From an uncultured bacterium (lineage in GTDB: Bacteria > Hydrothermota > UBA3073 > NMUJ01), in contig CBFDTI010000041.1 in the NCBI GenBank assembly GCA_965612795.1, forward strand, positions 1 to 11,370: 11,370 nucleotides of DNA, in the 5' to 3' direction. Below, piece after piece: positions 2,006 to 9,974 of the stretch (within the stretch, counting starts at the first letter, position 1; each line of letters begins with the position of its first letter). The position numbers and the translations under genes are program-made. The notes under the pieces are model-generated. The model had not been told where the DNA came from. It made no database searches and saw nothing but the letters and a program-made list of their open reading frames with translations.

Positions 2006-2438
2006 CTTCTATACCTAGCATTTTCTTGATATTCTCGTAATGTGTACCTTTCCAGTAATAGCGGCCGCAACCTGGGCAGTAAGCAAACTCGTCATGTACT
2101 TCATAAACATGGTATGGTACCTTACCACGTACTTCCGTCTTGGATACCTCAACTAACTCCGTGTTGCAGATTGAACACCTGGTGAATGGATTAATATCAA
2201 GTGGAAACGCTTTTTTGACTTCCTCAAGCTGTTCACGCCAATCCTGGCTCTTGATAACGAATATGGATGGATGGTGTGGCAGCTTATGGCTACGTGTAAG
2301 GATGACACGCCCCTCTTCTAGCGCCATTTTGAGCATACCATTACGGTCAGTTGGTTTTACATATATCACGTCCTGGCCCAATAATCGTAACACTCTCGCA
2401 AGCTTACCCAACATAAAATCTGCAATGAATCGCATCAC
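1977..2438 (-). CDS. Mut7-C RNase domain protein (DUF82; PIN-like fold with Zn ribbon)
   Basis: RFIADFMLGKLARVLRLLGQD, RVILTRS, FTRCSICNTEL and FAYCPGCGRYYWKGTHY are the family signature. Start is GTG 2438 or ATG 2435, both overlapping the serS stop codon. Confidence 0.9.
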   Translation of the reverse strand: MMRFIADFMLGKLARVLRLLGQDVIYVKPTDRNGMLKMALEEGRVILTRSHKLPHHPSIFVIKSQDWREQLEEVKKAFPLDINPFTRCSICNTELVEVSKTEVRGKVPYHVYEVHDEFAYCPGCGRYYWKGTHYENIKKMLGIEDANNGTPHN

Positions 2439-3685
2439 GGTATACGTTCCCTACCATCCATATATGGACGTAACACTTCTGGTATTGTAAGGCTACCATC
2501 TGCATTTTGATAAGTTTCAAGTATCGCTATAAACGTACGTGGGGTGGCTACCCCCGATGCATTCAATGTATGTACATAGTCTGTACGATGTTTGGTACGA
2601 AACTTAATCTTAGCACGTCGTGCTTGAAATGCTTCACAGTTGCTGACAGATGAAACTTCCAACCACTCCTTGGATACTGGTGCCCATACCTCTATGTCAT
2701 AGGTTTTTGCAGCCGCAAACCCCAATTCATATATGGGTAGGAGTACCACACGATATCTAAGGCCGAGCGACTTGATAACCTCTTCCGCCTCGTTGAGCAG
2801 AAACTCAAGTTCCTGATAGGAACGTTCGGGATGTGCGAACGAGAATAGCTCTACTTTGTTGAATTGATGTACACGTTTGAGCCCACGCGTGCCCTTGCCG
2901 TAACTGCCGGCCTCACGTCGGAAACATGCAGTATACGCCACATAACGTAGGGGGAGCTTCTCCTCTGGTAGTATCTCTTCACGATGCAGATTGGCTACTG
3001 TTACCTCAGCGGTGGGATTGAGGAAGAAATCTTCGCGCTCAATATGATACATATCATCTTCGAGTTTCGGCAACTGTCCCGTACCTATCATGCTCTGACG
3101 GTTGGCTACAAACGGCGTGAATACTTCCTTAAAGCCACGCTTAACGTGGAAATCCAACATGTAATTTAAGAGTGCACGTTCGAGCCTCGCACCCCACCCT
3201 ACGTACAATGGGAAGTTAGAGCCTGCAACTTTGGCACCTCTAACGAAATCGACCATACCCAACTGTTCAGCAAACGTGAAATGATCTAATCCCTCAAATT
3301 TGTGTTCACGAAACCCGCCCACCTCACGCAGTGTCTTAGGTTCATCTAAAGGTACTGATGCATGTACCGTATTGGGTATCCACAACAATAGTTGCATAAA
3401 TTCAGCTTCTATCGAGCGTAGCTGTTGCTCCAGCTTATCTATTTCATCTGATAGCTGACGAGCTGCTTCAATAAGCTTTGGGTCGTCCCTACCTTCACGT
3501 TTGAGCTTACCTATTTCACGTGTGAGTTGGTTCAACTCGGCTCGCTTTGTGTCACACTCTCTTACAAGTTGGCGACGCTGATTGTCTAGCTCCTTTAATT
3601 TGTCGATATCGACGGATTCGCCCCGTAATTCAACAATATGCTTAACTTTATCCCAATTCGTACGTAGATACTTTAAATCGAGCAT
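2435..3685 (-). CDS. serS: Serine--tRNA ligase (bacterial-type, class II)
   Basis: MLDLKYLR N-terminus plus coiled-coil arm, GTGQLPK, LNPTAEV, motif 2 CFRREAGSYGKGTRGLKRVHQFNKVE, KTYDIEVW, EVSSVSNCEAFQARR, motif 3 HTLNASGVATPR, and IPEVLRPYM. Confidence 0.98.
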   Translation of the reverse strand: MLDLKYLRTNWDKVKHIVELRGESVDIDKLKELDNQRRQLVRECDTKRAELNQLTREIGKLKREGRDDPKLIEAARQLSDEIDKLEQQLRSIEAEFMQLLLWIPNTVHASVPLDEPKTLREVGGFREHKFEGLDHFTFAEQLGMVDFVRGAKVAGSNFPLYVGWGARLERALLNYMLDFHVKRGFKEVFTPFVANRQSMIGTGQLPKLEDDMYHIEREDFFLNPTAEVTVANLHREEILPEEKLPLRYVAYTACFRREAGSYGKGTRGLKRVHQFNKVELFSFAHPERSYQELEFLLNEAEEVIKSLGLRYRVVLLPIYELGFAAAKTYDIEVWAPVSKEWLEVSSVSNCEAFQARRAKIKFRTKHRTDYVHTLNASGVATPRTFIAILETYQNADGSLTIPEVLRPYMDGRERIP

Positions 3686-3691
3686 CTCTTA

Positions 3692-3718
3692 AAAATAAAA
3701 GCATTAGAAACAGGTCAA
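3692..3718 (-). promoter_or_regulatory. Candidate sigma70-type promoter for the serS operon (possibly leaderless transcript)
   Basis: Minus strand TTGACC (3718-3713), 15-nt spacer, TATTTT (3697-3692), then 6 nt to the serS ATG. No strong Shine-Dalgarno. The spacer is shorter than the usual 17 nt. Confidence 0.4.
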
Positions 3719-3737
3719 TCTATACAGTTACGTTCAC

Positions 3738-3764
3738 TTGACATCTACATTTAGATGGTAATTT
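3738..3764 (+). promoter_or_regulatory. Candidate sigma70-type promoter for the tRNA/TonB-receptor operon
   Basis: Perfect TTGACA (3738-3743), 15-nt spacer, extended -10 TGgTAATTT (TG 3756-3757; TAATTT 3759-3764), ending 27 nt upstream of the tRNA. Confidence 0.45.
3742..3757. repeat. Inverted repeat CATCTA-N4-TAGATG, candidate operator
   Basis: Perfect 6-bp arms at 3742-3747 and 3752-3757, filling the spacer of the candidate plus-strand promoter. Confidence 0.45.
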
Positions 3765-3791
3765 TTAATTTGACAAGCCATAATGTAATCT

Positions 3792-3863
3792 GGCAGGGTG
3801 GAGCAGCGGAAGCTCGCCGGGCTCATAACCCGGAGGTCGGTGGTTCGAATCCACCCCCTGCCC
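3792..3863 (+). tRNA. tRNA-Met (CAT), initiator-type body with atypical acceptor end; CCA not encoded
   Basis: Full cloverleaf: acceptor GGCAGGG/CCCTGCC (3792-3798/3856-3862), D stem GAGC/GCTC, anticodon stem CCGGG/CCCGG with loop CTCATAA (CAT 3824-3826), variable region AGGTC, T arm GGTGG-TTCGAAT-CCACC. Confidence 0.96.
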
Positions 3864-3877
3864 AGCCGATCACGAAC

Positions 3878-3887
3878 AGGAGGGAGG
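3878..3887 (+). promoter_or_regulatory. Shine-Dalgarno sequence of the TonB-dependent receptor
   Basis: AGGAGGGAGG ending 4 nt before ATG 3892. Confidence 0.8.
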
Positions 3888-3891
3888 CACC

Positions 3892-6534
3892 ATGTTAAGG
3901 TCTAAGTTTATAGTTCTCATCTTTTTAATAATTCCCACCCTCCTCTTTGCTGGTGTTTATGGTAAAATTGCCGGTAGAGTAGTAGACAAGGAGACAGGTA
4001 AGCCGCTGGAAAACGTCAACGTGTACATACCCGGTACCGCTTATGGAGCGGCTACGGATAAACATGGTGAATATTTCATATTGAAAGTACCACCGGGTGA
4101 ATACACTGTACGTGCCGAACGGATAGGTTATCGTCCAGTGGATGTTAAAGGTATAATTGTAAGGACGGACCTCACCACGCGGGTAGATTTTGCACTCGAA
4201 CCGACAGCCATTGAAGTACCCGGTATAACAGTGATAGCTGAACGTCCGCTTATACAACCAGATGTCACCGCCTCTGTACGATACGCATCACGAAAGGAGA
4301 TTACCACAACACCGAAGGTGGAATCGTTCGAAGACGTTGTCGCTTTGCAACCGGGTGCTGTAGGTAGAGGTAGGGCTATCCATATAAGAGGCGGTAGGAG
4401 TGGCGAGATCCTGTATATGGTAGACGGTATTCCTATAAGGCATCCCATATATGGTGGTACGGCGGCGTTCGATCTGGACGTAATATCCATACAGGAGATT
4501 GAAATGCTCACGGGTGGGTTCAATGCCGAATATGGGCAAGCACAATCCGCAGTGGTTAACATAGTGACACGTGAGGGTGGGCCCAAGCTGTCAGGTGAGC
4601 TGATATACAAAAGCGATAACCTTGCACCTCAACGGTATTCGTTCAACACAGACTATGGAGCTGTATCATTTGGTGGTCCCCTACCAGTACTTGATCGTAT
4701 TGTACCGGGTGATCTCAGATTCTTTATCTCAAGTAATTTTAAGCTCACCGATACGTATTACAATAATCATCGTACAAGAGAGAAAATCGAAATATTACCC
4801 GGTATATTCGAGATCACCGAACGTCAGGAGAATAAGGCTGCCTTAAACCTCAAACTTACATATCAACCTACCAAGGCATACAAATTTGCCTTTGGATATA
4901 GGAGAGCGAGTGAACGTTGGAGTAGGTTCGATTGGTATTGGAAGAATATGCCAGATTCATTACCCATAAGTCATAGGTTTAATGAGCATGCCACTTTTTC
5001 GTTCATCCATACGGTGTCGCCTAAGACATTCTACACATTACATCTGGGTTACTTGAAGACACGTTACTACTCGTGGTTACACACACCGCCTGAATTTTGG
5101 CATATGGAGATAACCCCTGAAGGTGATACAATCTACAGATCAACCCCATGGGGTTGGGATACTGATGGTGATGGATTTTGTGACTTAGGTGCCGATTCAC
5201 GATACAGGGACGATACTTCTTACGTATATACGTTGAAGTATGACATCACGTCACAGATACATCGGCGACACTTGGTAAAATCCGGTATAGAGATCAACTA
5301 CCACGATGTGAATTTCATCGATATCCAGTACCCTGGCTCCTTCCGTTACCCTGGTCGTGACACCGTACCAGGACCGTATCCAGAGTATGGGCTATACCGA
5401 TGGTGTTTCGAGGGCTATCCCATCAAGGGGGCTGCCTACATACAGGATAAGATGGAATTTGAAGGCCTTATAGTAAATGTGGGGTTAAGGGTTGACTATT
5501 TCACACCGGGTGAAACCGTAACCCAGCCCGATTATCTGAGACAATGGCAGGCCATCACCCAGCTACCGCTTGAAGTCAAACGTCACAGGTTACAGATAAG
5601 TCCACGGCTGGGTATATCACACCCTATAAGTGACAAAACCGTCATATACTTTGCTTATGGGCATTTCAGCCAGATACCTGAGTTACAGTTCTTCTATCGT
5701 GACCCCTGGACCGGTACATGGGTAGGTAACCCTAACCTAAAGCCTGAAGTTACAGTAGCTTATGAAGTTGGTATCTCACACAAGATAATGAGAGATATGG
5801 CTGTGGATTTCAAACTGTTCATGAAGGATATATCCGATTATGTAGGACTCGTGAAAACGGGCGAACCTCCGGTATGGGTATGGATTAATAAAGGTTACGG
5901 GCGCGCAAAGGGACTTGAGATACATCTACGTAAACGATACTCGAGGTTCACCTCAGGTAGTATAGCGTATACCTTACAATGGGCTAATGGTTATGCATCA
6001 AGTGCATTCATGGAATGCTATAGGGTGTGGAGTGGTATGACCCTACCGATACGTGAACGGCCACTGGATTGGGACCAACGTCACTCAATCGTTATGATAG
6101 CCAATGTTGAGGTTCCAAAAGGTAAACATCCAGTGTTATTTGGTAAGAAGTTGCCGGATGATTGGTTAATAAGCATACTCTGGAGGTTTGGCTCGGGTCT
6201 ACCTTATACACCTGGTGGTAAAGATCCGCAGATATACGAAAATACTGCACATGCACCGTATACGAGTACGGTCGATCTTAAAATGGAGAAAGGACTTAAT
6301 ATTGGCAACCTCGATATAGTACTTTTCACGGAGATATCGAATCTACTTGACAATCAGAATGTAACCCATTTATGGTGCGGGTTCAACACATGGACGGGTG
6401 AACCTTACAAATATGGGGATGCTAATGAAGCATATCGTCAAATCTATAGCTGGAAACAGATATACGCCATGAGGAACCCATATGTATTCGATCCTGGCAG
6501 ACAGATTGAGTTGGGCATTAGAATAAAATGGTAA
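3892..6534 (+). CDS. TonB-dependent outer-membrane receptor with N-terminal carboxypeptidase-regulatory-like domain
   Basis: Signal peptide; GKIAGRVVDKETGKPLENVNV...GAATDKHGEYFI...PGEYTVRAERIGY domain; TonB-box-like ITVIAE; plug motifs HIRGGRSGEILYMVDGIPI and LTGGFNAEYGQAQSAVVNIVTREG; barrel motifs ISPRLGISHPIS and GNPNLKPEVTVAYEVG; C-terminal aromatic strand GIRIKW. Confidence 0.95.
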   Translation: MLRSKFIVLIFLIIPTLLFAGVYGKIAGRVVDKETGKPLENVNVYIPGTAYGAATDKHGEYFILKVPPGEYTVRAERIGYRPVDVKGIIVRTDLTTRVDFALEPTAIEVPGITVIAERPLIQPDVTASVRYASRKEITTTPKVESFEDVVALQPGAVGRGRAIHIRGGRSGEILYMVDGIPIRHPIYGGTAAFDLDVISIQEIEMLTGGFNAEYGQAQSAVVNIVTREGGPKLSGELIYKSDNLAPQRYSFNTDYGAVSFGGPLPVLDRIVPGDLRFFISSNFKLTDTYYNNHRTREKIEILPGIFEITERQENKAALNLKLTYQPTKAYKFAFGYRRASERWSRFDWYWKNMPDSLPISHRFNEHATFSFIHTVSPKTFYTLHLGYLKTRYYSWLHTPPEFWHMEITPEGDTIYRSTPWGWDTDGDGFCDLGADSRYRDDTSYVYTLKYDITSQIHRRHLVKSGIEINYHDVNFIDIQYPGSFRYPGRDTVPGPYPEYGLYRWCFEGYPIKGAAYIQDKMEFEGLIVNVGLRVDYFTPGETVTQPDYLRQWQAITQLPLEVKRHRLQISPRLGISHPISDKTVIYFAYGHFSQIPELQFFYRDPWTGTWVGNPNLKPEVTVAYEVGISHKIMRDMAVDFKLFMKDISDYVGLVKTGEPPVWVWINKGYGRAKGLEIHLRKRYSRFTSGSIAYTLQWANGYASSAFMECYRVWSGMTLPIRERPLDWDQRHSIVMIANVEVPKGKHPVLFGKKLPDDWLISILWRFGSGLPYTPGGKDPQIYENTAHAPYTSTVDLKMEKGLNIGNLDIVLFTEISNLLDNQNVTHLWCGFNTWTGEPYKYGDANEAYRQIYSWKQIYAMRNPYVFDPGRQIELGIRIKW

Positions 6535-6543
6535 GGAGGTATT

Positions 6544-8412
6544 ATGCTCATACCCTTTTTAATTTTTATGTTGGGTGTTGAGCCTCCAGCTATAGATTGG
6601 AAGAAACACGATGTGGGCCTTATACGGTTGAAGATATCGAACCTTGGTACAATGGGTAAACATCAAGCCGAAGTTTATGGCCAGGGGCGTCCACATTGTG
6701 AGTATCCGCCTGAAAGTAGCGAAGAACACATATGTGGTGCAGGCCTATGGATAGGTGCTAAGGTTGATGACCAGCCCCGTGTAACACAAGCGTTTCATGA
6801 TTGGGCAGAAGGTGGATCGGATATGTTCGAATTCTATCCTACAAATGATCCGAACGATACTCTATGGGTGGCAAGCATAAACGATCTGGATACACTACAT
6901 GGTGTACGGGGTGTGGACGATGATGGCGATGGTAAGGTGGATGAGGAGTTCCTCGATGGCCGTGATAATGATAATGATGGCCTCATTGATGAAGATTATG
7001 CTACATATTCGGAGCAGGATTTCACCTGTCACTACTGTGATGACTATTGGACTGATATTGTTGCACATAAGCCGTTACATCTTGAGGTTATACAACGTAG
7101 CTGGGCGTGGGGTTACCCTCCCTATGATGAATTTGTATTTGTAGACTACCAGGTGGTTAATAAGAATGAAGAGCCGTATCCTGAGCTCTATCTTGGATTT
7201 TGGTTCGATTTTAACGTAGGTATATACCCTACTTGGGGATGGTGGGATGGCGACTACTCGTGGTTTGATGAAGATTTACTTGTATCTGAAAGTGATACAA
7301 TCACAACGTATACGATGTATGCGTTTAGCCTGCCAGATCCATCCGGTACCCCTGTAGGTGCAGTTGCTGTATCGATACTTAAATATCCGAAAGAGCCTGG
7401 GTTACGGGCGTATCGTTGGTACATGGACTGCGGTGAACCTTATAACGATAGCATAAGGTACGAGCATCTTTCACAACCTATAATAATGGAGAGCCAAGGT
7501 CCAGACCAGGCGAGTGGCGGTTCGGGTAACCTTATCTCGTTTGGCCCCTACTACTTTGCACCCGGTGATACATTGCGACTTACGATAGTGGTTGTTTGTG
7601 GTATGGGGCCAGAGGGTGTAGAAAAGAATGTTGAAACAGCACATGAGTTTTATGCGAATGATTTTCATGGACCTGCGCCTCCACCGTCGCCTCCATTGGA
7701 AGTATATCCGGATGAACATAAGGTCAGGCTATGCTGGAAGTGGGAGCCCGGTGATCCGGGTACCAATCCCGAAGAGTTCTATGACCCCTACCGGATGGAC
7801 GGTATAGAATATCCGTTTGCTGGATATAGGATCTATAAAAGTACCAGCGGTATAAATGGGCCATGGACACTGATGGCTGATTACGATAAGAAGGGCGACG
7901 GGTTTGGTCGTGAAACCGGTCTACAATACGAATATGTAGATAGTGGGTTAGTAAATGGTATACCTTACTGGTATTGTGTCACCTCGTATGCGATATCACA
8001 TGAAGGTGTGTGGCTGGAGAGTGCGAAGTTTGCCAACGTGCAGAAAGTTGTACCAGGTTCGCCACCTAAGAAGCTGGGGCGAGTAGCGGTGGTACCCAAC
8101 CCATATCTCGGTAATGTCGATTATACAAGTCCATTGCCATGGGAAACGCCACGTGAGGCTGGTAGACAGTGGTCGGAAGCTGATAGGCGTGTGCAATTTA
8201 TAAATCTACCAGCTCACTGTACGATAAGGATTTATACATTAAGTGGCGATCTCGTAGATGTTATCGAGCATAACGATCCTAATAAAGGTTATGAAGATTG
8301 GTACCTCGTGTCACGTGCAAATCAGGCGATAATGACTGAAATCTACATATTCTCGGTGGAAGACCACGAAACTGGTGAGGTTCAAATAGGTAAATTTGTC
8401 GTCATTAAATAG
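6544..8412 (+). CDS. Secreted protein with DxDxDG repeats, fibronectin-III-like domain and T9SS type A CTD-like C-terminal domain
   Basis: Short hydrophobic N-terminus; tandem DxDxDG motifs; proline linker PAPPPSPPL, then Fn3-like VRLCW...FAGYRIYKS...EYVDSGLVNGIPYWYCVTSY; C-terminal VVPNPY...FINLP...IRIYTLSGDLV...W...YIF...GKFVVIK resembling the CTD pattern (xPNP, IY..G..V, GxY, KxxxK). Confidence 0.78.
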   Translation: MLIPFLIFMLGVEPPAIDWKKHDVGLIRLKISNLGTMGKHQAEVYGQGRPHCEYPPESSEEHICGAGLWIGAKVDDQPRVTQAFHDWAEGGSDMFEFYPTNDPNDTLWVASINDLDTLHGVRGVDDDGDGKVDEEFLDGRDNDNDGLIDEDYATYSEQDFTCHYCDDYWTDIVAHKPLHLEVIQRSWAWGYPPYDEFVFVDYQVVNKNEEPYPELYLGFWFDFNVGIYPTWGWWDGDYSWFDEDLLVSESDTITTYTMYAFSLPDPSGTPVGAVAVSILKYPKEPGLRAYRWYMDCGEPYNDSIRYEHLSQPIIMESQGPDQASGGSGNLISFGPYYFAPGDTLRLTIVVVCGMGPEGVEKNVETAHEFYANDFHGPAPPPSPPLEVYPDEHKVRLCWKWEPGDPGTNPEEFYDPYRMDGIEYPFAGYRIYKSTSGINGPWTLMADYDKKGDGFGRETGLQYEYVDSGLVNGIPYWYCVTSYAISHEGVWLESAKFANVQKVVPGSPPKKLGRVAVVPNPYLGNVDYTSPLPWETPREAGRQWSEADRRVQFINLPAHCTIRIYTLSGDLVDVIEHNDPNKGYEDWYLVSRANQAIMTEIYIFSVEDHETGEVQIGKFVVIK

Positions 8413-8423
8413 GAGGGAGTAAG

Positions 8424-9338
8424 ATGCGCAAATTCTTGAGCTTTACGTTCCTTATACCTCTACTCCTCTATGGGGTATATGATAGGCCTGGCAGCACTAC
8501 TGCACAGCTGCTCAAAATCGGATGTCATGCACGTGCGGTTGGTATGGGTGAAGCCTACATTGCAGTAGCAGATGATGCAAGTGCATTGTATTATAACCCA
8601 GCGTGTCTGGCACGTGTGAATGGTTACAGTATGTTCGCCACCCATATACCATGGTTTGCGAATATTAATTATGAATATGTAGGGATAGCGAAAAGTTTCA
8701 CAAGGGTGGGTACATTTGGTGTATCATTTGGTACATTGTACACAGATAAGATGCCGGTACGTACCATACTGCGGCCTGAGGGTACTGGTGAGTATTTCTA
8801 TTGTAGTGATTTTGTGTTGGGGCTCACCTATGCGACATTCCTCACGGATAAGACAGCGATCGGATTTACGCTGAAGTATGTGGGTATGTATCTTTATGTA
8901 TACTCAGCTGGTACGATATGTTGTGATATCGGTACATATTACTGGACGGGTTGGCATAACGTGCGGTTCGGTATGAGGATAATGAATTTTGGGCCTTACC
9001 TTAAGTTTATGCATGAGATGTGCCCTTTGCCTACTATGTTTTCATTTGGGGTTGCGGATGAGTTTATCGAGACTGATATGTATAAACTCACTGTGGCAGT
9101 CAATGTTGACAAGCCAACGGACTCTAAGGAACGATTAGCAATAGGGTGTGAATACTGGTATAATAATATGTTTGCTATACGGGCTGGTTACAAGATAGGA
9201 CATGATTCCGAAAAGTGGTCCACTGGTGTAGGGTTTGTACAGCATGTAGGTAAGCTTAGGTTCAGCATCAACTGCGCATACACACACTATGAAGGGCTTA
9301 ATGATGTGTATAGGTTGACGTTAGGGATAGCCATCTAA
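8424..9338 (+). CDS. PorV/PorQ-family (UPF0164, FadL-like) outer-membrane beta-barrel protein
   Basis: Signal peptide, then LLKIGCHARAVGMGEAYIAVADDASALYYNPACLA (family N-terminal signature), amphipathic beta strands, and GCEYWYNNMFAIRAGY; 304 aa. Confidence 0.88.
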   Translation: MRKFLSFTFLIPLLLYGVYDRPGSTTAQLLKIGCHARAVGMGEAYIAVADDASALYYNPACLARVNGYSMFATHIPWFANINYEYVGIAKSFTRVGTFGVSFGTLYTDKMPVRTILRPEGTGEYFYCSDFVLGLTYATFLTDKTAIGFTLKYVGMYLYVYSAGTICCDIGTYYWTGWHNVRFGMRIMNFGPYLKFMHEMCPLPTMFSFGVADEFIETDMYKLTVAVNVDKPTDSKERLAIGCEYWYNNMFAIRAGYKIGHDSEKWSTGVGFVQHVGKLRFSINCAYTHYEGLNDVYRLTLGIAI

Positions 9339-9347
9339 GGAGGTACA

Positions 9348-9974
9348 ATGAAAATACGTGCTGTTTTATTCATCACGGTAATTTCGGCAATAATGTTGAT
9401 TCAATGTACGAGACAGTTCACTACACCTGAACCCGGTTACCTACGTGTTTGGATAGAAGGTGAAGCCACCGACCGTAATGTGTTGGGTATCCAACCCGGT
9501 GATTGTTTAAACTTGAAGATCAACAACATAAGGGTATTTAGGGAAGATGGTTATTATAAACCGATATATTGGTCAACGGATGTGTTCCATGATACAGATA
9601 GGATTGTGAACATATTTGCATGGGATACAACAGAGGATAAATTTAGAACCTATTTCTTGGGTGAAACGGATCTACCGCCACAGAAGTTCGATACAATTAA
9701 GGTGACGATCAACCTCAGCCCTTACGTGGAGACCACTTACGTGGATACTGATACAGTGATTAATTACCGTTATAATGTGTTCAAACTGGGTGGACATCTA
9801 CTCAGTATAGACCTCGAATGGGGTACAAGTGTGGCGAAGGCCAATTTTGATTTACAGGTTGAGGAACACAAGTATTACGACCTCTACCTGTATTTCGATA
9901 TCGATAGCTCATTATCGAGGACTGCTGAAGGTTATGAGATGGCACCCGTAATTAAAGTGAAATCATTGGAGTAG
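9348..9974 (+). CDS. Putative lipoprotein, DUF4382-like beta-rich domain
   Basis: MKIR, hydrophobic stretch, then LIQC (Cys20). LGETDLPPQKFDTIKVTI and FDLQVEEHKYYDLYLYFDIDSSL resemble the DUF4382 pattern. Strong SD upstream. The CDS is secure; the family call is tentative. Confidence 0.65.
   Translation: MKIRAVLFITVISAIMLIQCTRQFTTPEPGYLRVWIEGEATDRNVLGIQPGDCLNLKINNIRVFREDGYYKPIYWSTDVFHDTDRIVNIFAWDTTEDKFRTYFLGETDLPPQKFDTIKVTINLSPYVETTYVDTDTVINYRYNVFKLGGHLLSIDLEWGTSVAKANFDLQVEEHKYYDLYLYFDIDSSLSRTAEGYEMAPVIKVKSLE

Follow-up and report, generated by a model that had tools for sequence, protein, structure and literature searches.

A G1:C72 initiator-type tRNA in a genus of candidate division WOR-3 whose Fmt lacks the basic part of its docking loop

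Initiator tRNAs and the 1:72 position

An unpaired or weak 1-72 position is the major determinant for the formylating enzyme Fmt; the initiators of all domains have it, and Fmt must open the pair (PMC5393177). More specifically, the unpaired C1-A72 is named as the major determinant, with A73, G2-C71, C3-G70 and G4-C69 as minor ones (PMC9976931). An earlier reading of the present DNA, made from its letters alone and hereafter called the sequence-only reading, had described the canonical rule in the same terms (a 1x72 mismatch and A73, the mismatch being the main Fmt determinant), and its account agrees with both sources. In Escherichia coli, the enzyme uses a 16-residue loop carrying Arg42, which docks on the acceptor stem at C1.A72 (PMC13234167). 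[quoted passage not shown]

Natural departures from this rule have been described by Shah et al. (2018), who surveyed the initiators of all sequenced bacteria and reported natural i-tRNAs combining three G:C pairs with U1:A72, U1:G72 or G1:C72 (their Fig. S13l-m); they suggest that such paired-1:72 i-tRNAs might also elongate (PMC6265465). According to the same source, E. coli 1:72 mutant tRNAs bound both IF2 and EF-Tu, an E. coli strain with a C1:G72 mutant as its sole tRNA-Met is viable with slower growth, and mitochondrial Fmt reads mainly the amino acid, one tRNA-Met filling both roles in that system (PMC6265465). Formylation itself has been called dispensable in Pseudomonas, Streptococci and Bacillus (PMC7949028). 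A separate literature search on initiator tRNA with the wording "G1 C72" matched no paper.

The tRNA at 3792-3863 and its genome

The stretch of DNA analysed here (the window, 11,370 nt) is contig C41 of a metagenome-assembled genome, G000, which comprises 1.42 Mb in 128 contigs and is 99.48% complete and 0.08% contaminated. The lineage is placed in candidate division WOR-3 by the names on its Fmt homologues, and the sequencing runs that contain the stretch are labelled as seawater, marine, hydrothermal vent and sediment metagenomes. Comparison was made with two other species of the same genus (G001 and G002) and with a genome of the same order (G003). ARAGORN finds a single tRNA in the window, a tRNA-Met(CAT) at 3792-3863 on the forward strand, which covers positions 1-73 and encodes no CCA. 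The Rfam model RF00005 matches this interval over its full length (66.3 bits, E 5.7e-13, model positions 1-71 of 71), and the structure was read from the sequence and from an alignment that sets it beside E. coli metZ and ten further initiators, those of relatives among them. A scan of 3600-3950 for a sigma-70 promoter or an intrinsic terminator found none.

All parts of the tRNA lie on the forward strand, and its D and anticodon arms have the canonical initiator form. The D arm (GAGC-AGCGGAA-GCTC, 3801-3815, also aligned by Rfam) contains the purine11:pyrimidine24 pair as A11:U24 (A3802:T3814). The anticodon arm (3817-3833, stem CCGGG/CCCGG, supported by ARAGORN and Rfam) presents the anticodon CAT (3824-3826) within the loop CTCATAA, that is, CAU within CUCAUAA, on a stem with three consecutive G:C pairs (29:41, 30:40 and 31:39) formed by GGG at 3819-3821 with CCC at 3829-3831. 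The acceptor stem departs from the canonical form. Its 5' strand GGCAGGG (3792-3798, identical in G001 and G002) pairs with its 3' strand CCCTGCC (3856-3862, supported by the Rfam structure line), so that G1 G2 C3 A4 G5 G6 G7 face C66 C67 C68 U69 G70 C71 C72. Position 1:72 is therefore G3792:C3862, a strong Watson-Crick pair where canonical tRNA-fMet has a mismatch or a weak pair; the discriminator, at 3863, is C73 instead of A73, and A4:U69 stands in place of G4:C69, while G2:C71 and C3:G70 are retained. A trailer AGCC follows at 3864-3867, with a C-run of variable length before its A. The hallmarks that the sequence-only reading had listed (three G:C pairs, A11:U24, CUCAUAA, G2:C71 and C3:G70) are all where it had placed them, and its assignment of G3792:C3862 to 1:72 and of C3863 to N73 is confirmed by the sequence, the metZ alignment and Rfam.

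The tRNA shares with E. coli tRNA-fMet (metZ, metW, metV and metY) the CAU anticodon, the CUCAUAA loop, the three G:C pairs, A11:U24, G2:C71, C3:G70 and G5-G7:C66-C68. The E. coli genes differ in having C1xA72, A73, G4:C69 and an encoded CCA, against G1:C72, C73, A4:U69 and no CCA in the WOR-3 tRNA, whose D loop is moreover two bases shorter. Elongator tRNA-Met is marked by Y11:R24, a strong 1:72 pair and an anticodon stem that lacks the run of three G:C pairs beside the loop; of these features the WOR-3 tRNA has only the strong 1:72 pair, its D and anticodon arms being initiator-type. Archaeal and eukaryotic initiators also have a paired 1:72 position and do not require formylation; nonetheless, their pair is a weak A1:U72 of unusual geometry (PMC5393177), whereas the WOR-3 tRNA combines a strong G1:C72 with the bacterial A11:U24 in a genome that carries fmt and def. 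Among laboratory tRNAs, the E. coli mutants G72 and G72G73 (C1:G72) likewise place a strong 1:72 pair in an initiator body, and G72G73 also alters the discriminator. These mutants show a defect in formylation, are sensitive to Pth and can act in elongation (PMC6265465). The WOR-3 pair, in contrast, is natural, fixed in its genus, of opposite polarity and found alongside a loop-less Fmt.

The closest described natural tRNAs are the G1:C72 i-tRNAs of Shah et al. (2018), which share the three G:C pairs and G1:C72 and occur in organisms that mostly have a separate elongator tRNA-Met (PMC6265465). The tRNA at 3792-3863 falls within their definition of the variant, namely three G:C pairs and a paired 1:72 in a bacterial genome. 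The comparison is with the section text of that survey, which makes no mention of C73 or of the state of Fmt, and WOR-3 tRNAs may be among those it counted (PMC6265465). A G1:C72 bacterial initiator is a rare variant already in print, and what is new here is the context of a loop-less Fmt. The sequence-only reading had foreseen that this acceptor end might turn out to be a common documented variant; it is documented (PMC6265465), as a rarity. As far as its sequence tells, the tRNA is by descent and by its remaining features the lineage's initiator, yet by its 1:72 pair it is not a canonical tRNA-fMet.

The inventory of tRNA genes agrees with this assignment. ARAGORN finds 46 tRNAs and a tmRNA in G000, and just three of the tRNAs carry CAT: the initiator at 3792-3863, an elongator-type tRNA-Met on contig C20 (14095-14167; G1:C72, A73), and an Ile2-like tRNA on contig C19. 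The genome also encodes TilS (182.3 bits), which makes the assignment of the third gene to Ile2 consistent. The search for a second initiator that had been proposed as a check returned none: the anticodon-arm pattern picks out one tRNA per genome in G000, G001 and G002, in each case the G1:C72 gene, and a non-G1 initiator pattern has no match in the three genomes. This sole-initiator status is that of metagenome-assembled genomes, in which an unassembled gap could hold a second initiator. A further match to the initiator arm on contig C17 of G001 is not a tRNA. The absence of CCA had been listed among the oddities of the gene, and it is real, but it is ordinary for this genome, since none of the 46 tRNA genes encodes CCA and the genome has a gene for a member of the CCA-adding-enzyme family. 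The orthologue in G001 even encodes C73 followed by CCA. C73, for its part, is found in G000 only in tRNA-His and in the initiator.

Upstream of the tRNA lies a divergent gene for seryl-tRNA synthetase (serS, 2435-3685 on the reverse strand, 416 aa, Pfam PF00587 and PF02403), which is also the neighbour in G001 and G002. Downstream, a TonB-dependent receptor with a CarboxypepD_reg domain is encoded at 3892-6534 on the forward strand (880 aa, Pfam PF00593, PF13620 and PF07715), as it is in G001. The tRNA is flanked by serS and the receptor within the genus only, which means that outside it synteny is no further evidence of orthology. Past the receptor, the frames at 6544-8412, 8424-9338 and 9348-9974 comprise proteins of 622 and 208 aa without a Pfam match and a weakly matching PorV-like outer-membrane protein (30 bits), and the open reading frames 3' of the receptor may form an outer-membrane uptake cluster. 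On the reverse strand, at 628-2438, a protein with a Mut7-C RNase domain (1977-2438) adjoins a 2Fe-2S protein of the Fer2_4 family and a pyridine nucleotide-disulphide oxidoreductase.

The three species G000, G001 and G002 share one and the same sequence over positions 1-73, with fmt and def genes that differ at dS 0.25-0.47, and the tRNA body has 91% identity with the G003 initiator. The variable part is the C-run after C72 (window 3860-3864; L002 and L003), which has one C in G000, two in G002 and in the Logan data sets X3 and X4, and three in G001. Logan contigs from the runs of other studies are in agreement: record 17 of X3 is exact over 3786-3837 (0 differences), and record 9 of X2 has two differences over 3600-3837, both of which lie before the start of the tRNA. 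X3 and X4 differ at many positions in the flanks, and among the differences listed the interval 3786-3866 has only one extra C in the 3' C-run. The Logan contigs break inside the tRNA, and the X2 pieces of this organism stop before 3838, which sets the extent of this agreement; one RNA run shared 0.04 of the stretch's words.

These data bear on whether the acceptor end is an artefact, such as an error of assembly, the mark of a pseudogene or the outcome of an old insertion that replaced the 3' end. It is true that the genome is metagenome-assembled and lies in 128 contigs. An assembly slip is nevertheless rejected because positions 1-73 are the same in three species and contigs of other studies agree, and the suspicion of an error at 3792 or 3862-3863 falls with it, the species sharing the whole of positions 1-73 and the Logan contigs agreeing over the 5' half. 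Decay is opposed by the full-length Rfam match. The earlier suggestion of a past insertion at the 3' end finds no support either: the 5' base G1 has changed too, and three species have these ends in common. The window holds the 3' half of the tRNA only once, and no match to an integrase family turned up among the eight window proteins scanned against Pfam. An artefact of any of these kinds is scarcely credible and is excluded for practical purposes.

Rarity of the pair and the enzymes of formylation

The distribution of the G1:C72 pair was followed in 272 WOR-3 species genomes searched with a full-length initiator pattern, 238 of which gave a pattern-matched initiator. A G1 initiator is present in three of these 238 (3/272 searched), all of them in the genus of G000, while the non-G1 pattern matches in 235 of the 272. 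Among the 150 non-G1 matches listed, none has a Watson-Crick 1:72 pair, the states being C1xU72, U1xU72, C1xC72, C1xA72 and one A1xA72; another 22 of the 88 further non-G1 matches were viewed through the class-level initiators. Within the class, where an initiator was found in 21 of 22 genomes, position 1:72 is G1:C72 in three, U1:A72 in one (G003), C1xA72 in ten, C1xC72 in six and C1xU72 in one. All class initiators found have A73 except those of the genus of G000, and across the other WOR-3 initiators seen A73 is likewise general save for one gene, a second initiator copy in G085 (contig C56, 290-362) that combines C1xA72 with C73, the other copy being a normal C1xU72/A73 gene. The G1:C72/C73 state is rare and derived within WOR-3.

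Wider scans had other limits. In a metagenome scan restricted to the G4:C69 form of a G1:C72 initiator, a single record in 241 million was found; this contig from a bioreactor-labelled metagenome (L187) carries an independent initiator-like tRNA with G1:C72, G4:C69 and U73. A GTDB-wide 15-mer scan for G1-type initiators returned at least 120 loci, mostly chance matches in high-GC DNA, from which no frequency can be derived. Among the GTDB matches listed, five are tRNAs, all of them G1xA72 initiators of other phyla (L112, L128, L132, L179 and L186), and one of these (L132) also has C73, followed by CCA.

Two further peculiarities were noticed in the initiators of the class. In families f3-f6 (L013, L017-L019, L021, L023-L026, L029 and L192; G004, G008, G010, G012 and G014), the anticodon loop is CCCAUAA, with C33; U33, which is near-universal in tRNA, is retained in the genus of G000, in G003 and in G016 (family f7). 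In family f4 (L013, L017, L018, L021 and L023-L026), U3:A70 is found instead of C3:G70, which is another altered E. coli Fmt determinant within the class that has the shortened-loop Fmt.

The genes of formylation and deformylation are in place, as the sequence-only reading had asked to be checked. In G000, fmt is intact (contig C25, 7507-8412, equivalent to L031:1489-2394) and encodes 302 aa scoring 243.7 bits against TIGR00460, above the cut-off of 201.5. The def gene is also intact (159.6 bits) and its product has the motifs GLAAPQVG, EGCLS and HEVDH; pth is intact as well (178 bits; contig C49, 4522-5097, equivalent to L034:1492-2067). In the relatives, def is found in G001, G002, G003 and G007, and fmt in G001; no fmt orthologue was found in G002, a genome that is 66% complete. 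The dN/dS ratios among members of the genus are 0.12 (fmt) and 0.05-0.11 (def). Judged by these ratios, both genes are under purifying selection in the genus and have been constrained since G1:C72 arose.

It is the docking loop of Fmt that sets the class apart. In an alignment of 30 WOR-3 sequences with E. coli Fmt, the 16-residue insertion loop is short by 7-11 residues and lacks the basic GRGxK stretch in all 21 sequences of the class, whereas it is full in E. coli and in the 9/9 Fmt from other WOR-3 classes. The enzymes of G000 and G001 miss seven loop residues, the GRGxK stretch included, so that a docking loop of the E. coli Arg42 type is absent from G000 Fmt. The predicted model of this protein (pLDDT 94.8, pTM 0.92) has the two-domain fold, superposes on the solved Fmt structures 3tqq, 4iqf, 1fmt and 2fmt with TM 0.92-0.93, and places eight residues between the strand at 28-33 and the helix at 42-49. 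Among the nearest 120 database homologues of Fmt, 14 have the shortened loop, all of them resembling the class. A literature search judged by titles, which is not proof of absence, found no description of a loop-less Fmt. The enzyme shows no change peculiar to the genus at any of the 15 columns that are invariant in its relatives (0/15), and so there is no sign of an enzyme adaptation specific to G1:C72.

Of 22 Pth columns without variation among relatives, exactly one has changed in the genus (R133K, mature E. coli numbering), the residue being R in 27 relatives and in E. coli. R133 of Pth touches the backbone of the acceptor stem at G2 and G3, and a part in holding the 5'-phosphate has been proposed for it (PMC3488237). 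The substitution could be part of an adjustment to G1:C72; it is a weak lead, given that K also occurs outside the genus (nine of 120 database homologues have K in this column, eight of these outside the genus) and that the change within it is a single evolutionary event.

Origin and use of the G1:C72 initiator

The explanation that we favour, and hold to be fairly probable, is that this tRNA is the sole functional initiator of a genus of uncultured marine bacteria, derived from ordinary bacterial initiators and still charged with methionine, formylated and used for initiation, its closed acceptor end being tolerated through a prior loss of the Fmt loop. Descent from ordinary bacterial initiators would account for the retained anticodon arm, A11:U24, G2:C71 and C3:G70. 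The shortest route may have started from C1xC72, a common state in the class, and led through a single C1-to-G step and a change of A73 to C; a compensated change of G4:C69 to A4:U69 would also lie on this route. We infer continued charging, formylation and use in initiation from the purifying selection that has maintained fmt and def in the genus. The basic part of the docking loop would have been lost first, throughout the class, and the closed 1:72 pair would have been tolerated afterwards, presumably because the Fmt of the class had already lost this part. With the loop part lost, recognition of the initiator must rest on other features, which may be G2:C71, C3:G70, the D stem and the C-terminal domain of Fmt; the methionine may contribute too, as it does in mitochondria. 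Mammalian mitochondrial Fmt, for which acceptor-stem determinants are not the main requirement (PMC6265465), may serve as a model for the loop-less WOR-3 enzyme in this respect. It is important to note what speaks against this proposal. In E. coli, a Watson-Crick 1:72 pair brings a formylation defect and sensitivity to Pth (PMC6265465; PMC5393177), and the WOR-3 tRNA has in addition lost two minor Fmt determinants, A73 and G4:C69. A loop-less Fmt might be worse, not better, at opening a 1-72 pair, and the retention of fmt could reflect another role. Furthermore, an initiator was detected in 18 other genomes of the class, whose Fmt is equally loop-less, and none of these tRNAs has a strong 1:72 pair (17 have mismatches and one the weak U1:A72), which indicates that loop loss alone does not free position 1:72.

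An alternative view is that a tRNA with G1:C72, C73 and A4:U69 is a poor Fmt substrate, and that initiation would proceed mostly with unformylated Met-tRNAi, as in fmt mutants of some bacteria, fmt and def having a minor or another role. The major and two minor E. coli determinants are missing, the Fmt has no docking loop, formylation is dispensable in the genera named above (PMC7949028), and E. coli lives, if more slowly, on a C1:G72 mutant as its sole tRNA-Met (PMC6265465). Loss of the function would, on the other hand, predict the decay of both genes, and instead fmt and def are intact in G000 with dN/dS of 0.05-0.12 in the genus and intact catalytic motifs in Def. Formylation-free initiation, one of the options raised by the sequence-only reading, is not favoured because fmt, def and pth are all intact and the first two are under purifying selection; this weakens the option without refuting it, and we regard such a state as unlikely. 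Still less likely is that the tRNA serves two functions, its unformylated form binding EF-Tu and decoding internal AUG while a formylated fraction initiates, like the tRNA-Met of mammalian mitochondria and the E. coli 1:72 mutants. An initiator-derived elongator or dual-use tRNA had also been among the initial options, and the possibility has its precedents in the proposal of Shah et al. (2018) for natural U1:G72 or G1:C72 i-tRNAs and in the binding of IF2 and EF-Tu by the E. coli mutants (PMC6265465). Mitochondria, though, have one tRNA-Met for two roles, whereas in G000 initiator and elongator genes are separate; the elongator-type gene on contig C20 makes dual use unnecessary. Dual use could, at the same time, coexist with a formylated initiator.

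An encoded acceptor end might also differ from the mature one, if editing, or trimming and repair, restored a mismatch or A73 after transcription. Nothing supports this directly. The length of the 3' C-run varies among strains, which means that the encoded 3' end has to undergo trimming and rebuilding anyway, and the CCA-adding-enzyme family protein is there. Against such a process, three species conserve G1 together with its partner C72, and this conservation points to selection for the pairing as such. We know of no editing of positions 1 or 72 in bacterial initiators, and we consider this explanation very improbable.

A broader form of the formylated-initiator explanation would extend to the whole class. 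In it, formylation would be non-canonical throughout, carried out by a loop-less Fmt with another mode of recognition, perhaps of the amino acid, under which the acceptor end has relaxed (C-A, C-C, C-U, U1:A72 and, in one family, U3:A70) and the G1:C72/C73 form is either formylated or shared with elongation. This extension is tentative, and on balance we doubt it. If true, initiation with fMet would here, for the first time in a free-living bacterial lineage, do without the 1x72 rule.

An open 1:72 position is taught as the mark for formylation, as the shield from peptidyl-tRNA hydrolase and as the bar to EF-Tu. A genus in which a strong G:C pair has been fixed at this position while fmt, def and pth are kept is a natural experiment on how strict the rule is. 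The added value of the present case lies in its phylogenetic placement, the evidence of selection and the enzyme context, the tRNA variant itself being already in print. From a practical point of view, an annotation pipeline keyed to the 1x72 mismatch may take such an initiator for an elongator. The loss of the Fmt docking loop throughout the class offers a concrete, testable reason for a relaxed rule, and it provides a natural Fmt variant for comparison with the E. coli and mitochondrial enzymes.
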